From Candidatus Campbellbacteria bacterium (GTDB lineage: Bacteria > Patescibacteriota > Minisyncoccia > Phycocordibacterales > GCA-2747955), in NCBI GenBank assembly GCA_002747955.1, contig PDQZ01000009.1:949-64948 (forward strand): a stretch of DNA of 64,000 nt, in the 5' to 3' direction. Under the pieces are notes generated by a model. That model searched no databases. It saw nothing but the letters and a program-made list of their open reading frames with translations, and had not been told where the DNA came from. The translations under genes were made by a program, and so were the position numbers. Of the stretch, positions 9,543 to 62,033 are shown one piece after another. The stretch's first letter is position 1, and every line of letters begins with the position of its first letter.

Positions 9543-10064
9543 ATGTTATTAACAAATTTTGAGATGGTAGATGGAGGGCTTTTAGACGAAAACATTCGTG
9601 AGAATGTTTTTGTTGATAAAAGTTACTCTATTTTTAGAGTAAACCTAAGCTCATCTTTTTTCTCAAACAGAAAATATGAAGCTTATGGTGACTGGAATTT
9701 TTGGTTGCAAAAAGACAGACTTGCACCAAATGGGGTTATGTGTAAACTTGGCTCTGGAGAAATTGAATTTTTTCAAGATGTTAACACCTACCATAATAAT
9801 TTGATTTACAGAGTCAAAGCAAAAAGATTTGGAAAAATAACGCAAAACAATAAATTTTCTCAAGTTAAATATCAAATGCAACTTGGAGAATATATTTATT
9901 TTTTCATTGTCTTTTCTCTGCCCGAATACATAAATTTTGATATTTATGATAAAAAGGGTAAAGTAATTGATTTTGTATGTCAAAAATACCAAAAACCACT
10001 AAGGCGTAAAACAAGTCTTGTGACTGAAAAAATATTTAGACACAGAACAAAACCTGCTTTTTAA
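9543..10064 (+). CDS. hypothetical protein, paralog A of a tandem pair
   Basis: Shares MLLTNF.., YGDW(N/D)FW, GSGEIEFF, VKYQ.QLGEY.YFFIVFSL with the ORF at 10267; RBS aggagaaaaaaATG. Confidence 0.7.
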   Translation: MLLTNFEMVDGGLLDENIRENVFVDKSYSIFRVNLSSSFFSNRKYEAYGDWNFWLQKDRLAPNGVMCKLGSGEIEFFQDVNTYHNNLIYRVKAKRFGKITQNNKFSQVKYQMQLGEYIYFFIVFSLPEYINFDIYDKKGKVIDFVCQKYQKPLRRKTSLVTEKIFRHRTKPAF

Positions 10065-10174
10065 AAGCAGGTTTTTTTAAAAGTATAAACACACACTAGT
10101 TCTTGGTTGGTTGTCTTTACTTCAAGTTTTTCTTTTGAAGCCTCGGGGCTATAAAAAAAATTTCTAAAATTCAT
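10061..10174 (-). pseudogene. duplicated promoter + 5' fragment of rsmE (first ~18 codons conserved), remnant 37-codon ORF
   Basis: About 76 bp at 10121-10196 nearly identical (few mismatches) to 50353-50428, which is the rsmE 5'UTR plus N-terminus; encodes MNFRNFFYSPEASKEKLE then diverges. Confidence 0.6.
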
Positions 10175-10266
10175 AAATACATTTTAGCATAAAACAAACA
10201 AATTTTCTTTACTTTTTTTCTAAAAACTATTAAATTTATGTTAAATTATTTCCAGGGGAGGAAAAA

Positions 10267-10740
10267 ATGTTATTAACAAATTTCAAAATTAAAAACGGTG
10301 GGTACTTACAAGGTAAATCAAGAGAGTATGTATATGTTGATGAAAAATACGCTCTTTTTAAGGTGGATCCACACGACCCTTCTCTTCACAAAGAAAAATA
10401 TGCTGCTTACGGAGATTGGGATTTCTGGGAGCATAGTGGCGGTATAATCACAAATGGGGTTATGCACAAAATTGGCTCTGGAGAAATTGAATTTTTTCCA
10501 GATACTAATTGTTATCATAATATTTTGATTTATAGAATCAAGGAAGAGGATTTCGGAAAAATAGTGGAAAATAATAAATATTCTCGAGTTAAATATCAAG
10601 TTCAACTTGGGGAGTATGTTTATTTTTTCATTGTCTTTTCTTTGTCTGACCATATAGATTTCTGTATTTATGATGAAAAGGGTAAGTTGGTTGATGCATT
10701 ATCTAAGAGATATAAAAAGCCACAAAAACGTAAAATTTAA
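10267..10740 (+). CDS. hypothetical protein, paralog B of a tandem pair
   Basis: Roughly half of residues identical to 9543..10064 with the same N-terminus and motifs; RBS gggaggaaaaaATG. Confidence 0.7.
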   Translation: MLLTNFKIKNGGYLQGKSREYVYVDEKYALFKVDPHDPSLHKEKYAAYGDWDFWEHSGGIITNGVMHKIGSGEIEFFPDTNCYHNILIYRIKEEDFGKIVENNKYSRVKYQVQLGEYVYFFIVFSLSDHIDFCIYDEKGKLVDALSKRYKKPQKRKI

Positions 10741-10812: not shown

Positions 10813-13323
10813 ATGTTAAATTATATTAGAAATTTATTTGATGAAAATAAATCAATTTTGAAAAAAACTTATCCTATTGTAAAAAAGATAAATTCTTATG
10901 CAGATGAAATGAAAAATTTGTCTGATCAAGAACTTGAACAAAAAACTCAAGAATTCAAAAAAGCTTTAAAAGATGGTAAAACTTTGGACGACATTTTACC
11001 TGAAGCTTTTGCTGTGGTAAAAGAAGTTTCAACAAGAGCAACTGGACTTACTCCATACGACGTGCAGTTGATTGGTGGTATTTTGTTACATCAAGGAAGA
11101 ATTGCTGAGATGAAAACAGGTGAAGGTAAAACTTTGGTTGCTACACTTCCTACTTATTTAAACGCTTTGGAGGAAAAAGGAGCTCACATTGTAACTGTAA
11201 ACGACTATCTTTCAAGAAGAGATGCGGTTTGGGTAGGACAAATTTTTGCAAAACTTGGGCTTTCTGTCGGGGTGATAAACTCAGACAACCAATCTTATTT
11301 ATACGACCCAACTTACAGGGAACAGTTTGACGAAGCTCGTGATGAACTTGGATCTTTCAAAGTGGTTTATGAATTTCTAAAACCTTGTGATAGGAAAGAG
11401 GCTTACAAAGCAGACATTACTTACGGAACAAACTCAGAGTTTGGTTTTGACTATTTGAGAGACAACATCACAGCAGACAAAGAAGATTTAAGGCAAAGAG
11501 ATTTAAACTTTGCAATTGTCGATGAGATTGACTCAATTTTAATCGATGAAGCTCGTGTGCCGTTGATTATTTCAGCCGGAGCAAGTGAAAACCGACAAAT
11601 TTATATTACTTTTGCTGAAATTGCAAAACAGTTAAATGAAGGGGAAGATTTTGAAAAAGACGAAAAAACAAAATCAATTATTATTAAAGACAGCGGAATT
11701 GATAAAGCTGAAAAAGCACTTGGAATTGACAACTTGTATTCTGAAAAAGCAATGGTTTTGGTTGATCACTTAGAAACTGCTTTGAAAGCTAAAGCTTTGT
11801 ATAAAAAAGAAAAAGAATATGTTATCAAAAACGGTGAAGCGGTTATCGTTGATGAATTTACAGGAAGAATGCAAGACGGAAGACGATGGTCAGATGGTTT
11901 GCATCAAGCTATTGAAGCTAAAGAAGGGCTTGAGATTAAAGAAGAATCAAGAACTTTTGCATCTGTAACATACCAGAACTTCTTTAAGATGTATAAAAAA
12001 CTTTCAGGAATGACCGGAACTGCTGAAACATCAAAAGAAGAGTTTTTCAAAGTGTATCATTTAGATGTTGTGGTTGTGCCAACAAACAAACCTGTAACCC
12101 GAGTTGATAAAAAAGATTTGATTTTTGCAACCGAAAATGGAAAGTTTGAAGCTATTGCAAACAAAATTCAAGAGCTTTATGAAAAAGGGCAACCTGTTTT
12201 GGTCGGAACGGCTTCTGTTGAAAAATCAGAACTTCTTTCAGAATTTTTGGTTAAAAAAGGAATCAAACACACTATTTTGAATGCTAAAAACCACGAAAGT
12301 GAAGGAGAAATTATTGCAAACGCAGGTAAAAAATCAGCCGTAACGATTGCTACAAATATGGCAGGGCGTGGGGTTGATATTAAGCTTGGTGGAGCTCTTG
12401 CGTCTGAAGAGGAAAAGCAAGAAGTTCTGAAAAATGGAGGACTTTATATTTTAGGTACAGAAAGACACGAATCAAGAAGAATTGACAACCAGCTTCGAGG
12501 ACGTTCTGGACGTCAAGGGGATGTGGGAGAAACTCAATTTTATATTTCACTTGATGACCACTTAATGCGAGTTTTTGGAAATCAAGAATTTATGAAAAAA
12601 ATTCTTCTGAAAAAAGTTGAACTTGAAGGTGGGGAAGACAAACCGATTGAGTCAAAAATCATGTCTTCAAATGTTGAAAAAGCTCAGGAGAAAATTGAAG
12701 GATTTCATTTTGACGCCCGAAAACATGTTTTGGAATACGACGATGTTTTGGATGTTCAAAGAAAAGCTATTTACAAAAAAAGACGAGATATTTTACTTGC
12801 TGAAAACGAAGATATTTTTGAATTTTTTAAAAGTGAATTTAAAGATAACCAAGAATTTTTGGATCAAACAAATCAGAAAATTGAAAAATTGAATCGAGAT
12901 GACTTTTTGAACTTTATTAAAAAAGTTTATTTAACTTCAATTGATACAATTTGGGTGGAGCACTTAAACGTGATGGAACATTTAAAGTCAGCTGTTTCTT
13001 TGCAATCTTACGGGCAAAAAGATCCGGTAGTGGAATATAAAAAAGAAGCTAAAAAATATTTTGAAAATATTTTTGAAGATATTAAAGGAAATGTTTTGAA
13101 AAATATAAACGCTGTAGACCCAGATCAGATTTTGGCAAATTTGGAAAGACAAACAGAGATTGAAAGAAAAGCCAAAGAAGCAGTTAAAAATTCAGAAAGG
13201 GCAGAAGAAGGAAATAAAAAGAAAAAACCAATTGTAAAAAAGAATGAGGAGAAAATTGGGAGAAATGATAAGTGTCCATGCGGAAGTGGAAAGAAGTATA
13301 AGAACTGCTGTATGAAACACTAA
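10813..13323 (+). CDS. secA: preprotein translocase ATPase SecA
   Basis: DEAD-like motor motifs (..MKTGEGKTLVATLP.., ..DEIDSILIDEARVPLIIS..), C-terminal zinc finger CPCGSGKKYKNCC; start at ATG 10813 just after a tataat (tatggtataat). Confidence 0.9.
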   Translation: MLNYIRNLFDENKSILKKTYPIVKKINSYADEMKNLSDQELEQKTQEFKKALKDGKTLDDILPEAFAVVKEVSTRATGLTPYDVQLIGGILLHQGRIAEMKTGEGKTLVATLPTYLNALEEKGAHIVTVNDYLSRRDAVWVGQIFAKLGLSVGVINSDNQSYLYDPTYREQFDEARDELGSFKVVYEFLKPCDRKEAYKADITYGTNSEFGFDYLRDNITADKEDLRQRDLNFAIVDEIDSILIDEARVPLIISAGASENRQIYITFAEIAKQLNEGEDFEKDEKTKSIIIKDSGIDKAEKALGIDNLYSEKAMVLVDHLETALKAKALYKKEKEYVIKNGEAVIVDEFTGRMQDGRRWSDGLHQAIEAKEGLEIKEESRTFASVTYQNFFKMYKKLSGMTGTAETSKEEFFKVYHLDVVVVPTNKPVTRVDKKDLIFATENGKFEAIANKIQELYEKGQPVLVGTASVEKSELLSEFLVKKGIKHTILNAKNHESEGEIIANAGKKSAVTIATNMAGRGVDIKLGGALASEEEKQEVLKNGGLYILGTERHESRRIDNQLRGRSGRQGDVGETQFYISLDDHLMRVFGNQEFMKKILLKKVELEGGEDKPIESKIMSSNVEKAQEKIEGFHFDARKHVLEYDDVLDVQRKAIYKKRRDILLAENEDIFEFFKSEFKDNQEFLDQTNQKIEKLNRDDFLNFIKKVYLTSIDTIWVEHLNVMEHLKSAVSLQSYGQKDPVVEYKKEAKKYFENIFEDIKGNVLKNINAVDPDQILANLERQTEIERKAKEAVKNSERAEEGNKKKKPIVKKNEEKIGRNDKCPCGSGKKYKNCCMKH

Positions 13324-13760
13324 AAAACTTTAAAAACCAGCGGCTAACTTTGTCAGCTTCGCAAAAAAAATCCCTCACCGTACTGTTCGTACGGCTCGGG
13401 TTTTTTTTGTTCGCTTCCGCGTTATCCATCTGGTTTTTAAAGTTTTTACAAAATTTTAAAAATGAGCGACTAACTTCGTTGGCTTCATAAAATTATTTCT
13501 CAACGTACTTCAAGTACGTCTCAATAATTTTATTCGTCGCCTCGTTATTCATCTGGTTTTTAAAGTTTTTACAAAACTTGAAAAATTGGCAGATTGCTTT
13601 GTTGTCTTCATAAAAAAATTTCTCAACGTAATAACACATACGTATCCAAATTTTTTTACTCGACGCCTCGCACTCTACTCAATTTTTAAAGTTTTTACAA
13701 AACTTGAGAAATTGGTGAACCTCATCTAATTTTTAGCGCTTCATTGTGAAAGTAGAAAAT
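13324..13760. repeat. tandem array of a modular ~115-125 bp intergenic repeat (3 full units + partial 4th); each unit has a cgta..tacg hairpin followed by a T-run
   Basis: Units share the aaagtttttacaaaacttgaaaaat(t)g junction, agc..ctaactttgttggcttc, (c/t)tca(a/c)cgta-N5-9-tacg hairpin, tttttt, cg.cgcctcg; homologous arrays at 54738 and 58366. Confidence 0.8.
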
Positions 13761-13860
13761 AAAAAATTTTAAAAACAAAAAGCCAAATAACACTGCGCTT
13801 TATTTGGCTTTTTTTTGTATAATTTTCACTTGCTTTTTTATTTAAAAGTGTTATAATTAA

Positions 13861-13985
13861 AAAAGCTTGGGGGTGCACCTCTCTAAAACATCTATGTTTT
13901 CAGACAACACGACCCTTACTTGCACCTCCAAGCTTTTTGTCCACCACTTCTGTGAGTGGTTTTTTATTTTGAATTTTTTTAAAAA
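13861..13985 (+). ncRNA. candidate structured RNA / 5' leader upstream of ppa (long-loop hairpin plus terminator-like hairpin)
   Basis: aagcttgggggtgcac..45 nt with nested hairpin..gtgcacctccaagctt, then ccact-tctgtg-agtgg + T-run immediately before the ppa promoter/start. Confidence 0.25.
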
Positions 13986-14005
13986 TTTTGTATAATAATT
14001 GTGTT

Positions 14006-14530
14006 ATGAATTTATTACACGACATACCTGCAGGAAGTGCAGATGAAATGAATGTTATTATTGAAATTCCTAAATTTTCAAAAAACAAATACGAGATTGA
14101 TAAAGAAACTGGGCTTATTGCTTTGGACAGGGTAATGCACACAGCTCAAGATTATCCATTTGACTATGGTTTTGTACCACAAACACTTTACGATGATGGA
14201 GATGCTCTTGATGTTGTGGTTTTAACAACACACGCACTTGCACCTGGGATTTTGGTAAGATGTCGTCCAGTGGCTGTAATGGAAATGGTTGACGATGGAG
14301 AAGCTGACGATAAAGTTATTGCAGTTCCAGTTGATGACCCTCGTTTTGACGAAGTTCAAGATTTAGGAGATTTAAATACACACTTTTTAAAAGAAATGAA
14401 ACACTTTTTTGGAACTTACAAGAAAATCCAAAACAAAGAAGTTTCAGTGGGAGATTTCAAGAATGCACAAGAGGCAAAAGATGCATTTGAGAAGTCAGTT
14501 GCTATGTACAAAGAAGACAAAGAAAAATAA
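14006..14530 (+). CDS. ppa: inorganic pyrophosphatase
   Basis: ..DYPFDYGFVPQTLYDDGDALDVVVL.. family I PPase signature; ATG 14006 lies 9 bp after a tataat (possibly leaderless); the listed ORF used an upstream TTG. Confidence 0.9.
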   Translation: MNLLHDIPAGSADEMNVIIEIPKFSKNKYEIDKETGLIALDRVMHTAQDYPFDYGFVPQTLYDDGDALDVVVLTTHALAPGILVRCRPVAVMEMVDDGEADDKVIAVPVDDPRFDEVQDLGDLNTHFLKEMKHFFGTYKKIQNKEVSVGDFKNAQEAKDAFEKSVAMYKEDKEK

Positions 14531-14560
14531 AAAACTTGAAAAATTGGTGACTTGATTTGT
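14531..14560. repeat. partial copy of the modular repeat junction motif (aaaacttgaaaaattggtga)
   Basis: Matches unit-start motif of the 13324 array (acaaaacttgagaaattggtgaacc). Confidence 0.5.
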
Positions 14561-14662
14561 TAGTTTAATTTAGAAATGTTTTGTTTGTAAAAAAGATGCA
14601 AATTTGACTTCGTCAAATTTGCATCTTTTTGTTTTTTGTTTTCAAAATGTTAAAATGTCTTT

Positions 14663-16639: not shown

Positions 16640-16651
16640 TTATATAAAACA

Positions 16652-16708
16652 AAAAAGCCCATTTTCGCTCAATGTTTAATTTAAAAAAGGGCGAAAATGG
16701 GCTTTTTT
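16652..16708. repeat. 55-bp hairpin element (arms aaagcccattttcgc / gcgaaaatgggcttt), copy 1; bidirectional terminator-like
   Basis: Near-identical copies at 50454-50512 (opposite orientation) and 55047-55103. Confidence 0.75.
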
Positions 16709-16736
16709 GTTCTTAAATTTTTGTTATAATTTAAAT

Positions 16737-30106: not shown

Positions 30107-30167
30107 TTTAGTTTAAAACACCATTTAACAAAGTTAAATGGTTTTTTTTTTAAATTCAAAAAATTTA

Positions 30168-30214
30168 AGGCAAGGCCTTGTTAAGGCAAGGTCTTAACAA
30201 GGCCTTGCCTTGAA
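30168..30214. repeat. nested palindrome built from caagg/ccttg units (GGCAAGGCC family)
   Basis: aaggcaaggccttgttaag-gcaaggt-cttaacaaggccttgcctt (19-bp arms). Confidence 0.7.
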
Positions 30215-31753: not shown

Positions 31754-32302
31754 ATGTATCAAGTTTACCAAACAAAAGCTTTTATTTTAAAATCAGAAAC
31801 ACAAAAAGAACAAGATCAGAAAGTTCTTGTCTTTTCTTTTGAATTTGGTTTGGTTTGGGTCAATGTAAGTTCATCTAAAAAAGACGGTTCGAAAATGAGA
31901 AATTTTTTGCAGAATTTTACTTTTGCTGATTTGTATTTAGTGGTTGGAAAAGGTGGTTTTCGTTTAACAGGCGGACAGTTTCTGGAGAATTTTTATTACG
32001 CTTTTAAATACAACAAAGAAGAAAAAATTAGAATTGTTCAAAATATTTTTAACTTAATTTCTAAAAATTTGATTTCACAGCATCCTGAAAAAGAAATTTT
32101 CAGTTTATTTGAAAAGTTTGTTTTTGAAATTAAAGATTTGAAAGATTTAAAAAGTGTAAAAGAAAAAGAGCTTATTTTTTTGGCAAACTTTTTGTTTCAA
32201 CTTGGGTATTTTGAAGAAAAGTATATTTTAAAAGATAATTTTTCAAAACAAGATTTTGAACTTTTGCAAAAAAAGGTAAATGAAGTTTTTAGGAATATGT
32301 AG
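31754..32302 (+). CDS. hypothetical protein; weak RecO-like N-terminal pattern
   Basis: OB-like N-terminus (..KAFILKSETQKEQDQKVLVFSFEFGLVWV..); assignment tentative. Confidence 0.3.
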   Translation: MYQVYQTKAFILKSETQKEQDQKVLVFSFEFGLVWVNVSSSKKDGSKMRNFLQNFTFADLYLVVGKGGFRLTGGQFLENFYYAFKYNKEEKIRIVQNIFNLISKNLISQHPEKEIFSLFEKFVFEIKDLKDLKSVKEKELIFLANFLFQLGYFEEKYILKDNFSKQDFELLQKKVNEVFRNM

Positions 32303-32326
32303 GAAAACGAAAACCAAGCCCGAAAT

Positions 32327-32404
32327 TTTGAAAAAGTTTTTGGAAAAAGTTGAAAGGCTTGTGCCTTTCAACTTTTTCCAAAAACTTTTTCAAAATTTCG
32401 GGTT
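32327..32404. terminator. long nested-palindrome terminator (gcccgaaattttg..tttttggaaaaa.. family)
   Basis: agcccgaaattttgaaaaagtttttggaaaaagttgaaaggcttgtgcctttcaactttttccaaaaactttttcaaaatttcgggt; related element at 40264-40350. Confidence 0.7.
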
Positions 32405-32498
32405 TGTTTTCAAAACCAAAAACTTGCTAAATTGTCAAGTATATTGTAAAATATACTAGGAAATCATTTAAAATTTTTTTAACAAAAGGGAGAAAAAA

Positions 32499-36693: not shown

Positions 36694-36750
36694 AATATAT
36701 TTACAAAAAACCGCCAAGCAAAAGGTGGTTTTTTAAATCATAAGAAAAAA

Positions 36751-36798
36751 CAAGGCCTTGCCTTAACAAGGCCTTGCCTTGTTAAGGCAAGGCCTTAA
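36751..36798. repeat. nested palindrome of the GGCAAGGCC family
   Basis: caaggccttgccttaacaaggccttgccttgttaaggcaaggcctta (18-bp arms, loop ccttg). Confidence 0.7.
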
Positions 36799-49722: not shown

Positions 49723-50406
49723 TTACAATAAAATTTTTGAACATAAGCACAAAGCTGCATTTTCAGCTTTTAAAACATTGGATGTTTTAAAAGATAAAAT
49801 CTTTTCTTTTTCAAAAAGTTTCATTTCTCTTTCAGACAAACCACCTTCAGGCCCTATAACACAAGCTTTGATATTCTTTATATCAATTTCATTTATATTT
49901 TGACCACCAAAATTTAAAACAAAAGAGTTTGGATTTTCTTTTAAAAAATCATCTAAACTGTTTTTAAAATCAAGTTTCATTAAACTTCCTCTGCCACATT
50001 GCTCACAAGAGTTGATTAAAATTTTTTGAAGTTTTTCTTTTTTTAGCTTAAAACTTTTTTGACTCAAATCAGAATATATAAAGGTGATTTTTTCAACTCC
50101 TGTTTGGTTTAAGTATGGCAAAACTTCTTTGATGCTTTTCGGATCAATGATACAAAAACCTAAATGAAAATTATTTTGATTTTCATTTTTAACTTCTTCT
50201 CTGCTTTCCAAAACTAAAAAAGCTTTTTTGTTTTGAACACTTTGGATTTTGTAAGAATAATCAAAGTCATCTTTCAGATTTTTTAAAATCACAATATCAT
50301 TCTCTTTTTGCCTTCTTGATTTTACTAAGTGATTAAAAAGGTCATTTTTAATTTCAAGTTTTTCTTTTGAAGCGTCGGGACTGTAAAAAAAATTTCTAAA
50401 ATTCAT
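49723..50406 (-). CDS. rsmE: 16S rRNA (uracil1498-N3)-methyltransferase RsmE
   Basis: C-terminal SPOUT motif VIGPEGGLSEREM (cf IGPEGGF.E.E). Confidence 0.7.
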   Translation of the reverse strand: MNFRNFFYSPDASKEKLEIKNDLFNHLVKSRRQKENDIVILKNLKDDFDYSYKIQSVQNKKAFLVLESREEVKNENQNNFHLGFCIIDPKSIKEVLPYLNQTGVEKITFIYSDLSQKSFKLKKEKLQKILINSCEQCGRGSLMKLDFKNSLDDFLKENPNSFVLNFGGQNINEIDIKNIKACVIGPEGGLSEREMKLFEKEKILSFKTSNVLKAENAALCLCSKILL

Positions 50407-50453
50407 AAATATATTTTAACATAAAATCATTAAAATTTTAGCATATGAAAAAT

Positions 50454-50512
50454 AAAAGCCCATTTTCGCCCTTTTTAAATTAAATATTGAACGAAAATGG
50501 GCTTTTATTTTT
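50454..50512. repeat. 55-bp gcccattttcgc hairpin element, copy 2 (reverse orientation)
   Basis: aaaagcccattttcgccctttttaaattaaatattgaacgaaaatgggctttt is near-identical to the reverse complement of 16652-16708. Confidence 0.75.
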
Positions 50513-53690: not shown

Positions 53691-54737
53691 TTGTTTATGT
53701 TTAAGAAAAAAAAGAAAAATATTTGGCAAAAGTTGAAGTACAAAAAACCCGAAGGGTTTTTTGTGCTAGCTCCCATGGCCGACGTAACCGACAATCCTTT
53801 TCGAAAAATTATAAATCAAATCGGAAAACCTGATTTGTTTTACACAGAATTTGGGGCAACAGACGGGCTTGCTTCTGAAAAAGGGTATAAAAGAATTAAA
53901 ACTCAAATTTTTAATTTTGAAAAGAATCAAAAACCAATCATCGCTCAGATTTTTGGTGGAAAACCCGAAAATTACAAAGAAGTTGCAAAAAAAGTTGCAA
54001 ATATGGGTTTTGATGGAATTGATTTAAATACAGGTTGCCCTCAAAAAAACATTTTAAAACAAAAATCAGGTTCTGAACTGATCAAAGAAGAAAACTGGGA
54101 CCTGGTGCGACAAATTATTCAAAACATTAAAAAAGGAATAAAAGAAAGCAAAAACCAAATTCCATTTTCCTTAAAAACAAGAATTGGTTTTAATCAATAC
54201 AACAAAGAATGGATAAAATTTTTGTTAGAACAAAAACTTGATGCTTTGATTATTCACTTGCGAACTAAAAAAGAAATGTCAAAAGTTCAGGCTCACTGGG
54301 AGCTTGCTAAAGAACTTACAGAGCTTAAAAACAAAATTTCTCCCAACACAGTTTTGATTTTCAATGGAGATATAAAATCTAAAAAAGAAGGTTTTCAGAA
54401 ACTTAAAGAAAATGGTGCAGACGGAATTATGATTGGTCGAGGAATTTTTGAAAATCCAACTTTATTTAGAGACCAAGATTTTTCGAAAAAAAGTGTTCAA
54501 GAAAAAACAAAAATAATGTTAAAACACGCAAAATATTTTGAAAAAGAGTTTGGAAAAACTTTTAAAAACAAAATTTTGTTTGGTGGACGAATAAAACCAT
54601 TTGCTTTGATGAAAAAGTTTTTCAAAATTTACATAAACGGTTTTGATGGAGCAAAAGAATTTAGAGAACATTTAATGAAAGCAAATAGTTTAAAAGAAGT
54701 TGAACAAGTAGTTAAAAACCATCTGAAAAAACTTTAA
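53691..54737 (+). CDS. tRNA-dihydrouridine synthase
   Basis: ..FVLAPMADVTDNPFRKI.. Dus N-terminal signature, TIM-barrel length. Confidence 0.85.
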   Translation: MFMFKKKKKNIWQKLKYKKPEGFFVLAPMADVTDNPFRKIINQIGKPDLFYTEFGATDGLASEKGYKRIKTQIFNFEKNQKPIIAQIFGGKPENYKEVAKKVANMGFDGIDLNTGCPQKNILKQKSGSELIKEENWDLVRQIIQNIKKGIKESKNQIPFSLKTRIGFNQYNKEWIKFLLEQKLDALIIHLRTKKEMSKVQAHWELAKELTELKNKISPNTVLIFNGDIKSKKEGFQKLKENGADGIMIGRGIFENPTLFRDQDFSKKSVQEKTKIMLKHAKYFEKEFGKTFKNKILFGGRIKPFALMKKFFKIYINGFDGAKEFREHLMKANSLKEVEQVVKNHLKKL

Positions 54738-54975
54738 AAATGAGCACATAACTTTGTTGGCTTCGTGTAAAAATATTTTCAACGTACTTCAAGTACGTCT
54801 CAAATATTTTTCACTCGCCGCCTCGTTATGTATCTCATTTTTAAATTTTTTAAAAAAACTTGAAAAATAAGTTTCTAACTTTGTCAATCGCACACAAAAA
54901 ACCTCTCACCGTAATGCCCATACGACTCGAGGATTTTTTGTTTGTTTCCGCGTTATATATCTTATTTTTTAAGTT
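54738..54975. repeat. modular ~115-125 bp intergenic repeat, 2 tandem units (same family as the 13324 and 58366 arrays)
   Basis: Unit 1 carries tcaacgtacttcaagtacgtctcaa, identical to the 13324 array unit 2 and the 58366 array unit 1; unit 2 carries cctctcaccgtaatgcccatacgactcgagg + T-run. Confidence 0.8.
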
Positions 54976-54992
54976 TTTAAATAAGAAACATT

Positions 54993-55030
54993 GAGATAGG
55001 CCTTGCCTTGAGATAGGCAAGGCCTATCTC
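54993..55030. repeat. GGCAAGGCC-family palindrome
   Basis: gagataggccttgcc-ttgagata-ggcaaggcctatctc. Confidence 0.7.
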
Positions 55031-55046
55031 AGATCTGTCTCAAATG

Positions 55047-55103
55047 AAAAAGCCCATTTTCGCTCAACTTTAATTTTAAGAAGTGCGAAAATGGGCTTTT
55101 TTA
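55047..55103. repeat. 55-bp gcccattttcgc hairpin element, copy 3
   Basis: aaaaagcccattttcgctcaactttaattttaagaagtgcgaaaatgggctttttt; near-identical to 16652-16708. Confidence 0.75.
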
Positions 55104-55133
55104 TTTCAGCACAAAAATGTTATAATAATTTTA

Positions 55134-57660: not shown

Positions 57661-58365
57661 ATGAGAGAAATTCTAGTAAATAAAAGTGGAGAAAGTGTAG
57701 TTTTTGAAATCTTTGTTTTGATGTTCGTGTCGTTTATTTTAGGTTATGTTGTCAGATTGGTATATGAAAAATTCTTTTTATATGAACAAGTAAATGATGA
57801 CTTTTACGACGATATAGAAGACAAATACATTAAAGATGATTTGACAAATTCATATAACCAACAAGGACTTGATAATTTTGACCAAAACATTGAAAATGTT
57901 GATTTTTCAGATTCAAAAAAAAATCATTTTGAAACAAAATCAAACAAAGAAAACATAAATCAACAAGAAAATAATCAAGAAAAAGAAAAAACAGATTATC
58001 AAAGCTATATTTCTCTTGATAAATCACAAAATCAAGAAATTATAAACAGTAACAATATTGAAGAAATTAAACAAAGTGTGGTAAAAAGCACATTGTCTCC
58101 TTATTCTGAAATAGAAATGCAGGACTTAAAAATCGTAGACGGAGTTGGTCCTAAAATTGAACTTTTGTTAAAAAGAAATGGAATTGAAAACTTAAAAGTT
58201 CTTTCTGAAACTTCTCTTGAAAGATTAAATCAAATTCTAGATACAGCAGGTGATAAATACGCTTTTCATAACCCAGCTTCATGGGCAGAACAAGCAGAAC
58301 TTGCTTTAAAGGGGAATTTGAATGAGTTAAGCGAATTTCAAGACTATATATCAGCAAAAAAATAA
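57661..58365 (+). CDS. membrane-anchored protein with C-terminal helix-hairpin-helix motif
   Basis: N-terminal TM, acidic/Q-N-rich linker, ..DLKIVDGVGPKIELLLKRNGIENLKVLSETSLERL.. HhH-like. Confidence 0.5.
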   Translation: MREILVNKSGESVVFEIFVLMFVSFILGYVVRLVYEKFFLYEQVNDDFYDDIEDKYIKDDLTNSYNQQGLDNFDQNIENVDFSDSKKNHFETKSNKENINQQENNQEKEKTDYQSYISLDKSQNQEIINSNNIEEIKQSVVKSTLSPYSEIEMQDLKIVDGVGPKIELLLKRNGIENLKVLSETSLERLNQILDTAGDKYAFHNPASWAEQAELALKGNLNELSEFQDYISAKK

Positions 58366-58615
58366 AGAAAAAAACGTTAAAAATTAGTTCATAATTTTGT
58401 TGACTTCGTAAAAAATATTTTCAACGTACTTCAAGTACGTCTCAAATATTTTTCACTCGTCGCCTCATTATGAATCTAATTTTTAACGTTTTTTAGGTTG
58501 CAAAAATCTTTGTTGACTGCACAAAAATACCCTCACCGTAATAACGCATACGACTCGGGTATTTTTTATTTGTCGCCTCGATTTTTATCTAATTTCTGCT
58601 ATTTTTTAAATTGTA
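58366..58615. repeat. modular ~115-125 bp intergenic repeat, 2 tandem units (same family)
   Basis: Unit 1 ..ttttcaacgtacttcaagtacgtctcaaatatttttcactcgtcgcctc..; unit 2 ..ccctcaccgtaataacgcatacgactcgggtatttttt.. Confidence 0.8.
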
Positions 58616-58813
58616 TTTTTTTTTAATAAACGCAATTTTGACGAAGCCAAAATTGCGTTTATTTTTGTGTTAAAACAAAAAAGCACCATTATACTTATAC
58701 ACTTTTTGCTTTTCTAACCTATTGATAGTTTTTATTTTTTTGATATTATATTTTTAAGGAGCTTTTGTTCCAAAAAAGGCTCCGGTTATTATTAAATTTA
58801 AAATATTCAAAAA

Positions 58814-59080
58814 ATGGAAAGTAAGACAGATGTGGAATTTCTGGAAATGATTGTAAAACAAATCGTTCAAAATCCTGATGATGTAAAAGTCGAAAGGGTA
58901 GTGGATGAAATGGGAGTACTTCTAACACTTAAGGTTCACAAAGACGATATGTCACAAGTGATCGGAAAAAGCGGTAGAACTGCTTCTGCAATCAGAACTC
59001 TATTGAGAGTTGTTGGAATGAAAAACAATTCAAGAGTAAATTTAAAAATAGACGAGCCGGAAGGTGGAATGAGAGAATAA
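58814..59080 (+). CDS. KH-domain RNA-binding protein (KhpA/UPF0109-like)
   Basis: ..VIGKSGRTASAIRTLL.. KH GXXG motif; 88 aa. Confidence 0.7.
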   Translation: MESKTDVEFLEMIVKQIVQNPDDVKVERVVDEMGVLLTLKVHKDDMSQVIGKSGRTASAIRTLLRVVGMKNNSRVNLKIDEPEGGMRE

Positions 59081-61369: not shown

Positions 61370-61705
61370 ATGGAAAGGCAAATAATAAAATACAAAAAAT
61401 ACTTTGATAAGTTTTATGAAAAGTTGGAACACGATGAGAAAATTGAAATCAGGGAAGGTTTATATCTTTTAGCTTACGGAAAAGAACTTGAAAAGAAAAA
61501 TCTTATCAAAAGAATGAAAAACGGAGATGGGATTTATGAATTAAGGTTAAAAACAGAAAAAAGTATTTTTAGAGTTTTTTATTTCTATGACGGCCAAAAA
61601 ATTGTTGTTTTATTTCAAGGAATGAAAAAGAAAGATAAAAAAAGACAACAAAAAGAATTACAAAAAGCAATTAAGTTAAAAAAAGAATATTTAAGTGATA
61701 AATAA
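61370..61705 (+). CDS. RelE/ParE-superfamily toxin of the HigB / phage Gp49-like type
   Basis: ..DGIYELRLKTEKSIFRVFYFYDGQKIVVLFQGMKKKDKKRQQKELQKAIKLKKEY matches the Gp49-like addiction-module killer pattern. Confidence 0.65.
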   Translation: MERQIIKYKKYFDKFYEKLEHDEKIEIREGLYLLAYGKELEKKNLIKRMKNGDGIYELRLKTEKSIFRVFYFYDGQKIVVLFQGMKKKDKKRQQKELQKAIKLKKEYLSDK

Positions 61706-61709
61706 AATT

Positions 61710-62033
61710 ATGAATAAAAAAAAAGAAAAAGATTTAAACCAATATCCAGTTGGGAAAAATTGTTACGATTTAACACCAATTTTAGATAAAGAGTTTGGTA
61801 AACCTGGGACAAAAAGAGCAGAAAAGAGTTTGGAGAGAATTTTTAAAGAATACAGAGCAAGAGATTTGAAAGAAAAAAGACAAGAAGCTAAAAAAACTCA
61901 ACAAGAAGTTGCAGATATTTTAGGAAAAGATGTAACATATATCTCAAAAATTGAAAGCGGAAAAATGTCACCTTCAGTTGATGTATTTTATAAATATGTT
62001 CAGGCAATTGGAAAAAGAGTAGAAATAGTTTAG
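61710..62033 (+). CDS. XRE-family HTH antitoxin (HigA-like)
   Basis: ..LKEKRQEAKKTQQEVADILGKDVTYISKIESGKMSPSVDVFYKYVQAIG.. canonical XRE HTH; overlaps or abuts the toxin gene (alternative GTG start 61695). Confidence 0.65.
   Translation: MNKKKEKDLNQYPVGKNCYDLTPILDKEFGKPGTKRAEKSLERIFKEYRARDLKEKRQEAKKTQQEVADILGKDVTYISKIESGKMSPSVDVFYKYVQAIGKRVEIV

Follow-up and report, generated by a model that had tools for sequence, protein, structure and literature searches.

The stretch of DNA analysed here, which we call the window, comprises 64,000 nucleotides from Candidatus Campbellbacteria bacterium (positions 949 to 64,948 of contig PDQZ01000009.1, assembly GCA_002747955.1), a member of the Patescibacteria or Candidate Phyla Radiation (CPR); the SecA that it encodes matches an NCBI entry of this organism name at 100% identity. 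Descriptions of CPR/Patescibacteria genomes, which are tiny and streamlined, usually present them as having little mobile DNA and few repeats. In this window, whose G+C content is 29.5%, tandem arrays of a palindromic repeat unit stand at the ends of secA, dus and an open reading frame (ORF) of 234 amino acids, and a relic of the same unit stands behind a fourth gene, which encodes inorganic pyrophosphatase (ppa; ORF 13988–14530). The best-supported conclusion of the analysis is that these units represent a previously uncatalogued family of palindromic ~124-bp elements, present across phyla.

Three arrays at the ends of genes

A repeat family of ~115–125 bp in tandem arrays at three loci had been proposed from the window, and both searches made here recover it. 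Specifically, a regular expression for the apical core (TCAMCGTA-N7-8-TACGNMTC) has seven matches, all on the + strand and none elsewhere in the 64 kb, and a covariance model built from the seven window units (R1) agrees with it on seven full units of 122–125 bp, again all on the + strand (Table 1). There are three units after secA, two after dus and two after the 234-amino-acid ORF; the “two to four copies” per array of the original prediction are thus three (plus a truncated head), two and two. Array 1 has a repeat period of 123 (Tandem Repeats Finder), and the repeat finder connects all three array loci. The claim that identical sequence occurs at all three was correct, as the 25-mer TCAACGTACTTCAAGTACGTCTCAA is found exactly once per array locus (0 expected). 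A conserved junction said to be common to the arrays was not found as such: the 25-mer quoted for it is confined to array 1 (three occurrences, allowing up to two mismatches), with variants of it in the other arrays. The junction was also considered as a promoter and rejected, its promoter matches being no commoner than in shuffles.

The placement of arrays directly behind the secA and dus stop codons had been seen correctly, except that the dus stop lies within U4, which supplies the last codons of the gene (K K L stop); the third neighbour, described as an HhH protein, has no Pfam match at E ≤ 1e-6. The sole ORF that overlaps a unit is an antisense one of 81 amino acids across the secA end, and the units, small (122–125 bp) and with no coding capacity, are of the size usual (under about 400 bp) for miniature transposable elements that carry inverted repeats (MITEs). 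Each array is followed by a separate terminator, and each terminator by the promoter-like site of the next gene. Because the arrays lie between a stop codon and a separate terminator, they fall within the 3' untranslated region (UTR). The units of different arrays are closely related in part: the central 83 nt of U6 are 93% identical to those of U4, and three double-sided changes separate the arms of the two. In a second, independent assembly of this organism (SRR6011893; L121 1–400 versus window 58430–58830), the compared segment is identical and the contig ends within the U6 apical loop, which indicates that the repeat breaks short-read assemblies.

Table 1. Positions of the repeat units and of the signals around them, in window coordinates
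Feature	Position	Strand	Remark
secA stop codon TAA	13321..13323	+	adjoins the first base of U1; pairs with the unit 3' end (TAAAAACTTT / AAAGTTTTTA)
Unit U1	13322-13446	+	full rod hairpin; apical stem CCGTAC/GTACGG, loop ctgttcg, GC-containing middle stem
Unit U2	13448-13569	+	chimera: 5' arm U4-like, 3' arm identical to U1; carries the 25-mer common to the three loci
Unit U3	13571-13695	+	full unit
Truncated 5' head of a fourth unit	about 13697-13729	+	after U3; TAC AAAACTTGAGAAATTGGTGAACC...
Canonical terminator-like hairpin and T-run	13777-13818	+	downstream of array 1; closes the secA 3' region
Relic: 5' arm and degenerate 5' loop (AAAACTTGAAAAATTGGTGACTTGATTTGTTAG)	14531-14577	+	directly 3' of the TAA (14528-14530) of the inorganic pyrophosphatase gene
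Unit U4	54726-54850	+	dus stop codon (54735-54737) within its 5' arm
Unit U5	54853-54977	+	TAA between U4 and U5; TAA also after U5
Terminator-like hairpin after array 2	55042-55107	+	one of three window copies
Unit U6	58369-58492	+	begins 3 nt past the TAA stop (58363-58365) of the 234-amino-acid ORF
Unit U7	about 58489-58608	+	degenerate outer arms; covariance model matches 58495-58594
Canonical terminator after array 3	58625-58672	+	16-bp stem and T-run

R1 gave 46.8 bits to one further candidate in the window, at 32313–32406, but this is an unrelated near-perfect palindrome that lacks the family loops and was excluded. This 94-nt palindrome, with a stem of ~45 bp, stands directly after an ORF ending at 32302 and scored only as a long hairpin flanked by A/T.

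Structure of the unit and covariation of its pairs

Each unit forms one rod-like hairpin over its full length. The short hairpin described in the original prediction exists, and the five loop sequences listed for it are correct; however, it represents just the end of a hairpin extending over the entire unit, and the 14 nt at either terminus of the unit form terminal inverted repeats (AAAAACTTTAAAAA / TTTTTAAAGTTTTT). From the outside inward, the unit consists of an outer stem made of the inverted arms, a semi-conserved helix (CTAAC/GTTAT in the window genome) with a small conserved bulge on its 3' arm, a conserved pair of mismatched loops (5' CTTTGTYGNCTTCG opposite 3' CYYGNCGCCTCG, ..CGCCTCG), a variable helix of 10–12 bp, a conserved TCA/CTC internal loop, and an invariant CGTA/TACG tip that closes a free loop of 7–8 nt. 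Computed folding energies lie between −24 and −55 kcal/mol for RNA and between −20 and −34 kcal/mol for single-stranded DNA (ssDNA), the latter with z from −4.9 to −9.1 against shuffles.

Covariation analysis of the hairpin, which had been proposed as a check, gave a strong signal that is Watson–Crick only. Among the seven window units alone, 22 of the 46 predicted pairs show pair-keeping changes on both sides. In an alignment of 39 CPR copies (A5), 89.8% of cells pair, versus 60.6% in column shuffles (0 of 500 reach the observed value) and 32–40% with slid partners; changes on both sides are found in 304 cells where 92 are expected, and the covariation score is 0.71 versus 0.19. A structured RNA that acts from one strand normally has a clear excess of G-U pairs on that strand. 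Here, G-U pairs make up ~14 of 1050 paired cells (~1.3%) in the same alignment, and, over the whole family, G:T mismatches (wobbles of the + strand) and A:C mismatches (wobbles of the − strand) are about equal in number (57 versus 76 in CPR, 152 versus 173 in deltaproteobacteria). Since the covariation is strong but Watson–Crick only, without G-U excess, the constraint acts at the level of DNA or on two strands: the palindrome is maintained in DNA or on both strands, and not as an RNA of one strand. The suggestion that the units might be small RNAs finds no support in the wobble test, G-U being enriched on neither strand, and the G-U tolerance with strand asymmetry that marks a generic structured RNA is lacking in the family. 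Minus-strand folding is better by up to ~10 kcal/mol in four units, but a one-strand RNA was rejected here too, as the wobble counts have no strand preference. That the units are putative protein-binding modules, the other function suggested for them, is plausible.

Copies of the family also occur in Smithella, where the terminal inverted repeats are TACCAATTC.. / ..GAATTGGTA. These copies pair only in their outer arms and at the tip; between them lies a conserved interior that forms a bubble. Because of this bubble, what is conserved across phyla is the sequence of the loops and tip together with the overall length, and not every helix.

Distribution, apparent mobility and alternative readings

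A degenerate IUPAC pattern limited to the 5' loop and tip was run against 596 Gb of genomes, one for each species, and returned at least 117 loci, versus ~0.7 expected by chance (calculated for equal base frequencies). The repeat is thus conserved outside the three window loci, a point on which the original prediction had staked itself. By record title, the matches fall in Patescibacteria of several classes (Campbell-, Kaiser-, Pace-, Parcu-, Sacchari- and Peribacteria); the other matches listed include Smithella, Syntrophaceae and Syntrophorhabdales, with single ones in Bdellovibrionales, Nitrospirae, “archaeon” and “Pseudomonadota” metagenome-assembled genomes. Those labelled archaeon, Pseudomonadota or Nitrospirae resemble the Smithella type in sequence and are probably binning errors. 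Although it lay outside the pattern, the 3' loop motif occurs in 96 of the 117 matches listed, versus 1 of 117 control segments; the matches are therefore homologous and not artefacts. One match (L055) sits within an ORF and looks like a chance match. Applied to the matched loci, R1 yielded 115 non-redundant full-length copies of constant length (~124 nt), including some missed by the pattern and some tandem pairs, and a metagenome scan with the common 25-mer added two contigs of a related organism with three further arrays.

The original prediction did not recognise the sequence, and neither did the databases searched. In Rfam, the whole window at gathering thresholds gave only one tRNA, seven family-bearing loci at E ≤ 1 gave nothing on the element, and array 1 at E ≤ 5 gave only far-sub-threshold chance matches. 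No match was obtained by BLAST of a window unit against phage records or of a Smithella unit against plasmid records, viral contigs scanned for the family contained none, and a literature search by topic and motif strings found no description of it. Downstream of secA, the family is absent where SecA homologues are 70–74% identical. A hairpin downstream of secA in L003 (R1 23.5 bits) looks unrelated and was excluded as a member; at 12522–12624 of this locus (70% SecA identity), a long AT-rich hairpin of ~100 nt extends from the secA stop codon and may be either a decayed copy or independent. Between secA and the next gene, two relatives, L002 (12585–12720) and L003 (12680–12800), also have a strongly paired conserved segment, CCCACCACAAGT...ACTTGTGGTGGG then GGTCATAAG...CTTATGGGTC, that looks like an unannotated structured RNA.

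The placement of copies differs between hosts. In CPR, 25 of 42 copies have a same-strand ORF stop −6 to +23 nt from the hairpin base, mostly at −4 to +1 (18 TAA, 6 TAG and 1 TGA), the remainder are mostly internal array units or lie at contig ends, and only four copies are antisense to a converging gene. Smithella copies are sense in 30 cases versus antisense in 20. The flanking genes are unrelated core housekeeping genes (SecA, Dus, PPase, GatA, EF-P, PilC).

Evidence for mobility comes from the Smithella genomes, in which many near-identical copies with the ends TACC...GGTA occupy unrelated loci. Their 3-bp outer flanks are overwhelmingly TAA, TTA, TGA or TCA; in 15 of 44 copies the two flanks match exactly (shuffles 6.1 ± 2.0, maximum 14 in 5000), with inverted flank matches at background (9 versus 6.7). 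These flanks are a 3-bp TNA target-site duplication and, by this duplication, their inverted ends, size, lack of coding capacity and copy number, the Smithella copies fall under the usual definition of MITEs (Delihas, 2011; PMC3184786). In the window, the boundaries read TAA-U1, U4-TAA-U5-TAA and TAA-aga-U6; elsewhere they read TAA-U-TAA-U-TAA-U-TAA in the L122 array, TAA-U-(T)TAA-U-(T)TAA in another array of the related contigs and TAA-U-TAA-U-TAA in L091. In the lineage of the window, TAA, which is the most frequent stop codon, forms most unit boundaries, and this would account both for copies on stop codons and for tandem arrays. Recombination also shapes the arrays: U2 is a U4/U1 chimera, U4 and U6 are alike in the core and different in the arms, and L054 has a tandem duplication of element plus spacer. 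The only presence/absence case concerns the element after the efp stop, which L028 and L034 have and L104 lacks; the L104 flanks have diverged too far for an empty site to be defined.

A variant at L097 (3320–3445) has the 5' half of the family (TACCAATTCTAAATCAAAGCGCTATCTTTGTTRGC) at both ends in inverted orientation around an unrelated interior, which suggests that ~35 bp of the 5' end can act as a terminal repeat. This variant may mark the true terminal repeat recognised in mobilisation. At four Smithella loci (L018, L060, L071 and L106), another repeat, TATTATGCGCTCCCCTGCGGGGTGCGCTTCCGGTC, stands beside the element, and in L060 it lies within the element tip.

The resemblance to BOX/BIME/REP-type elements noted at the outset holds in that this is a dispersed intergenic family of the BOX/BIME/REP/MITE kind. 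We put at roughly one in two the probability that its members are non-coding palindromic elements that act like non-autonomous mobile DNA of the MITE/REPIN kind. On this account, the element would integrate at T-N-A, mostly TAA, and duplicate its target. These genomes are AT-rich and tightly packed and most often use TAA as the stop codon, which an insertion at this site would preserve; stop codons would be among the few tolerated sites, and the surviving copies would be those on stop codons. Each insertion would regenerate TAA on either side and so open the way to further insertions, and re-insertion together with recombination between copies would lead to head-to-tail arrays, the window arrays presumably having grown by re-insertion. 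The conserved unpaired loops may serve as cis signals for an enzyme that acts in trans, its substrate probably being folded DNA in single-stranded or cruciform form, and the effect on the host would be passive, that of long hairpins in 3' UTRs.

Several observations weigh against mobile DNA of this kind. As the original prediction stated, no transposase was found in the window: the 70 window ORFs compared with Pfam include none, nor an integrase or reverse transcriptase. Next to copies elsewhere (762 ORFs clustered all-against-all, with Pfam run on cluster representatives), there are housekeeping genes only and no mobilising gene; the 8-kb loci hold no autonomous element with the same ends, and a search for solitary half-sites returned truncated copies, one copy with a repeat in its tip (L060), the L097 variant and no transposase-bearing element. 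The terminal nucleotides vary from one CPR lineage to the next, in contrast to the conserved internal loops, a pattern unusual for DDE-type transposons; the window boundaries lie in A/T runs, so that a TAA (or TTAA) duplication is inseparable from an extension of the inverted repeats; the junctions of array 1 are TAC; and no clean pair of filled and empty sites was found among the loci compared. The strong sense bias of the CPR copies (25 sense versus 4 antisense) is not predicted by simple selfish DNA, and between two Patescibacteria species an orthologous copy that follows pilC is 97.5% identical, more than the final 52 nt of the pilC gene (84.9%) or the spacer downstream (48.7%), which suggests constraint in place.

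The last two observations would be expected if the element were, in CPR, a host-functional 3'-end module, possibly domesticated and transcribed with the upstream gene, whose loops are read by a host RNA-binding protein or RNase that sets mRNA 3' ends, stability or the coupling of translation termination to transcription. The near-constant sense placement at stops, from which the hairpin base is only a few nucleotides away, hints at selection or domestication, and the three window arrays, the relic and two L122 arrays are all sense. In a third genome, with a PilC of only 55% identity, pilC is likewise followed immediately by a copy, whose loops are the same and whose stems differ; the loop motifs are conserved across phyla; and the L046 element is the only hairpin between two genes. 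We nevertheless hold such a host function to be unlikely. One common post-pilC position among about 35 loci is, by our estimate, within chance, an array at L123 is antisense to its nearest gene, and tandem redundancy with truncated relics is typical of selfish repeats, while in Smithella the copies lie in either orientation, are accompanied by target duplications and have an interior that is not a helix. The wobble signature of an RNA is also lacking, G-U cells being not above A-C. A wider form of the idea, in which the element could be a folded nucleic-acid signal at CPR gene 3' ends with its unpaired bases read by a conserved putative protein, is doubtful to a like degree, though it would jointly explain the Watson–Crick-only covariation, the conserved loops with free ends, the sense placement on stops and the in-place conservation of the orthologue. 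Were it true, the signal would amount to a new recombination, mobilisation or termination system, with a logic like that of attC/IntI or REPIN/RAYT, common to Patescibacteria and Syntrophales.

By analogy with integron attC sites or with REPIN/RAYT, the units may alternatively be folded ssDNA sites of recombination or transposition, for which a tyrosine or HUH enzyme encoded elsewhere would recognise structure and extrahelical bases and not end sequence. The Watson–Crick-only covariation over about 27–46 pairs with conserved unpaired bases would suit such a site, as would the conserved C opposite an AT bulge (…CG… / …CAT…) on one arm, the variable end sequence around a conserved interior, the position directly 3' of ORFs in the same orientation and the R''/R'-like CTAAC...GTTAT pair of the window units; the length range of attC sites includes 124 nt. 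However, the AAC/GTT triplets vary in the family (CTATC/GATAT, CTACC/GGTAT, ATCTG/CAGAT), there is no GTAG-type REP head, neither an integrase nor a Y1/HUH gene is present in the window, copies are flanked by core housekeeping genes and not by cassettes, and the direct duplications of 3 bp around Smithella copies suggest that double-stranded targets were cut in a staggered way, all of which makes this reading quite improbable. Still harder to sustain is the proposal that each module is an intrinsic transcription terminator and the arrays a stack of them. It draws on the A-tract, hairpin and T-tract of the units, on the GC-containing stems followed by T6–T8 in U1, U5 and U7, and on L046, where no other terminator stands between the element and the next gene. 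Yet a consensus scan calls none of the seven units as intrinsic terminators, whereas it does call the canonical terminator that follows every array; termination has no need of conserved mismatched loops or an invariant CGTA/TACG tip; and Smithella members have neither stem nor T-tract, with a largely unpaired interior, and occur in both orientations. U1, U5 and U7 could pause or terminate transcription, but this is not the defining property of the family. As for a purely local segmental or tandem duplication, to which the regular 123-bp period of array 1 and the tandem copy of element and spacer in L054 might point, it is refuted by the three loci and the relic in the window, by the three additional arrays in related contigs and by the many loci in other genomes of at least two phyla, leaving it next to no probability.

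Whichever of these readings holds, one family makes up ~1–4% of the sequence examined (7 units in 64 kb of the window and 7 more in 20 kb of the related contigs), a load that is unexpected in reduced genomes and that adjoins the ends of core genes, among them secA, dus, ppa and pilC. Smithella and Syntrophales, from the same anoxic habitats, carry the same core, which implies either cross-phylum mobile DNA or an unrecognised gene-end signal. In practical terms, the element can supply stop codons and C-terminal residues (as in dus) and creates spurious ORFs, long double-stranded stems would stand in many 3' UTRs, and the covariance model (R1/A5) is well defined.

Other features of the window stand apart from the family or adjoin its arrays. 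Between the array-1 terminator and the pyrophosphatase gene, a possible small RNA gene lies at 13826–13966 (+), with a promoter-like TTGCTT...TATAAT, a segment of ~100 nt closed by the long-range stem GCTTGGGGGTGCACC...GCACCTCCAAGC, and a terminator, CCACCACTTCTGTGAGTGG plus T6; it has no Rfam match even at E ≤ 5. A 66-nt terminator-like hairpin, AAAAGCCCATTTTCGC...GCGAAAATGGGCTTTT, occurs at 16647–16712, at 50447–50512 (inverted) and after array 2 at 55042–55107. A second type of palindromic repeat, based on GGCAAGGCCTTGCC, is found at 30165–30195, 36749–36780 and 54990–55031, the last copy (GAGATAGGCCTTGCC...GGCAAGGCCTATCTC, 17-bp stem) standing directly after U5. A 91-nt intergenic repeat is present at 10116–10206 and 50348–50438 (87% identical), and the segments 9727–10011 and 10451–10735, in two adjacent ORFs without Pfam match, are 78% identical. 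At 61370–62033, a Gp49-like (DUF891) gene stands beside an HTH_3 gene, an arrangement typical of a HigB/HigA-type toxin-antitoxin pair.

Comparison with known repeat systems

Pneumococcal BOX and SPRITE also stand at gene ends, as repeats that are arranged in tandem, look modular or resemble terminators, and whose transcripts can form hairpins (PMC3184786). Unlike pneumococcal BOX, which is assembled from modules A, a variable number of B, and C, each repeat here is a complete self-folding unit, and unlike SPRITE, a terminator mimic, the units are not called as terminators. The Tas-associated TIGR guide arrays (PMC12045711) have conserved stems with variable spacers in internal loops and lie beside a tas gene, whereas in the present family the loops are conserved, the stems are variable and no Nop-domain gene adjoins the arrays in the window.

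Integron attC sites are alike in the precedence of structure over sequence, in conserved unpaired bases, in their position 3' of an ORF of the same orientation and in length range. The resemblance to the attC R''/R' pair is confined to TAAC...GTTA in most window units, other complementary pairs taking its place elsewhere in the family; moreover, the window encodes no integrase domain, there are no cassettes, the units are directly tandem and the flanking genes are core genes. REPIN/RAYT systems share a long hairpin of ~100 nt with conserved bubbles, intergenic placement and high copy number, and REPINs are mobilised in trans by a single-copy enzyme encoded elsewhere and persist for long within lineages. 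Unlike REP, BIME or REPIN, the family has no GTAG head and its arms are not inverted copies of one short REP; unlike REPIN/RAYT, it shows target duplications in Smithella, and the window ORFs include no Y1 transposase domain or RAYT.

A 3-bp TNA duplication with preference for TAA/TTA is typical of Tourist-type MITEs/PIF-Harbinger and of the IS5 family (IS1031-type), and the duplication seen here is alike, as compared by description; no IS5-like transposase was found among the window ORFs. The ends of those families are unlike the TACC...GGTA or A/T-rich ends found here. The Correia elements of Neisseria, pneumococcal RUP and the enterobacterial ERIC/IRU (~127 bp) are alike in their non-coding size of ~120 bp; they are set apart from the present family by their descriptions and not by sequence, none of them being in Rfam. 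The target duplication of Correia and RUP is TA, and that of the present family is the 3-bp TNA. Unlike bacterial MITEs, the family has ends that differ by lineage while its internal mismatched loops are conserved across phyla, and it combines head-to-tail arrays with strict sense placement at CPR stops and no known parent insertion sequence. What it has in common with bacterial MITEs are terminal inverted repeats with the whole element folding as a stable hairpin, many dispersed intergenic copies near gene ends, the flanking direct repeats shown by the Smithella subfamily and, as at dus, an insertion that supplies the end of an ORF.

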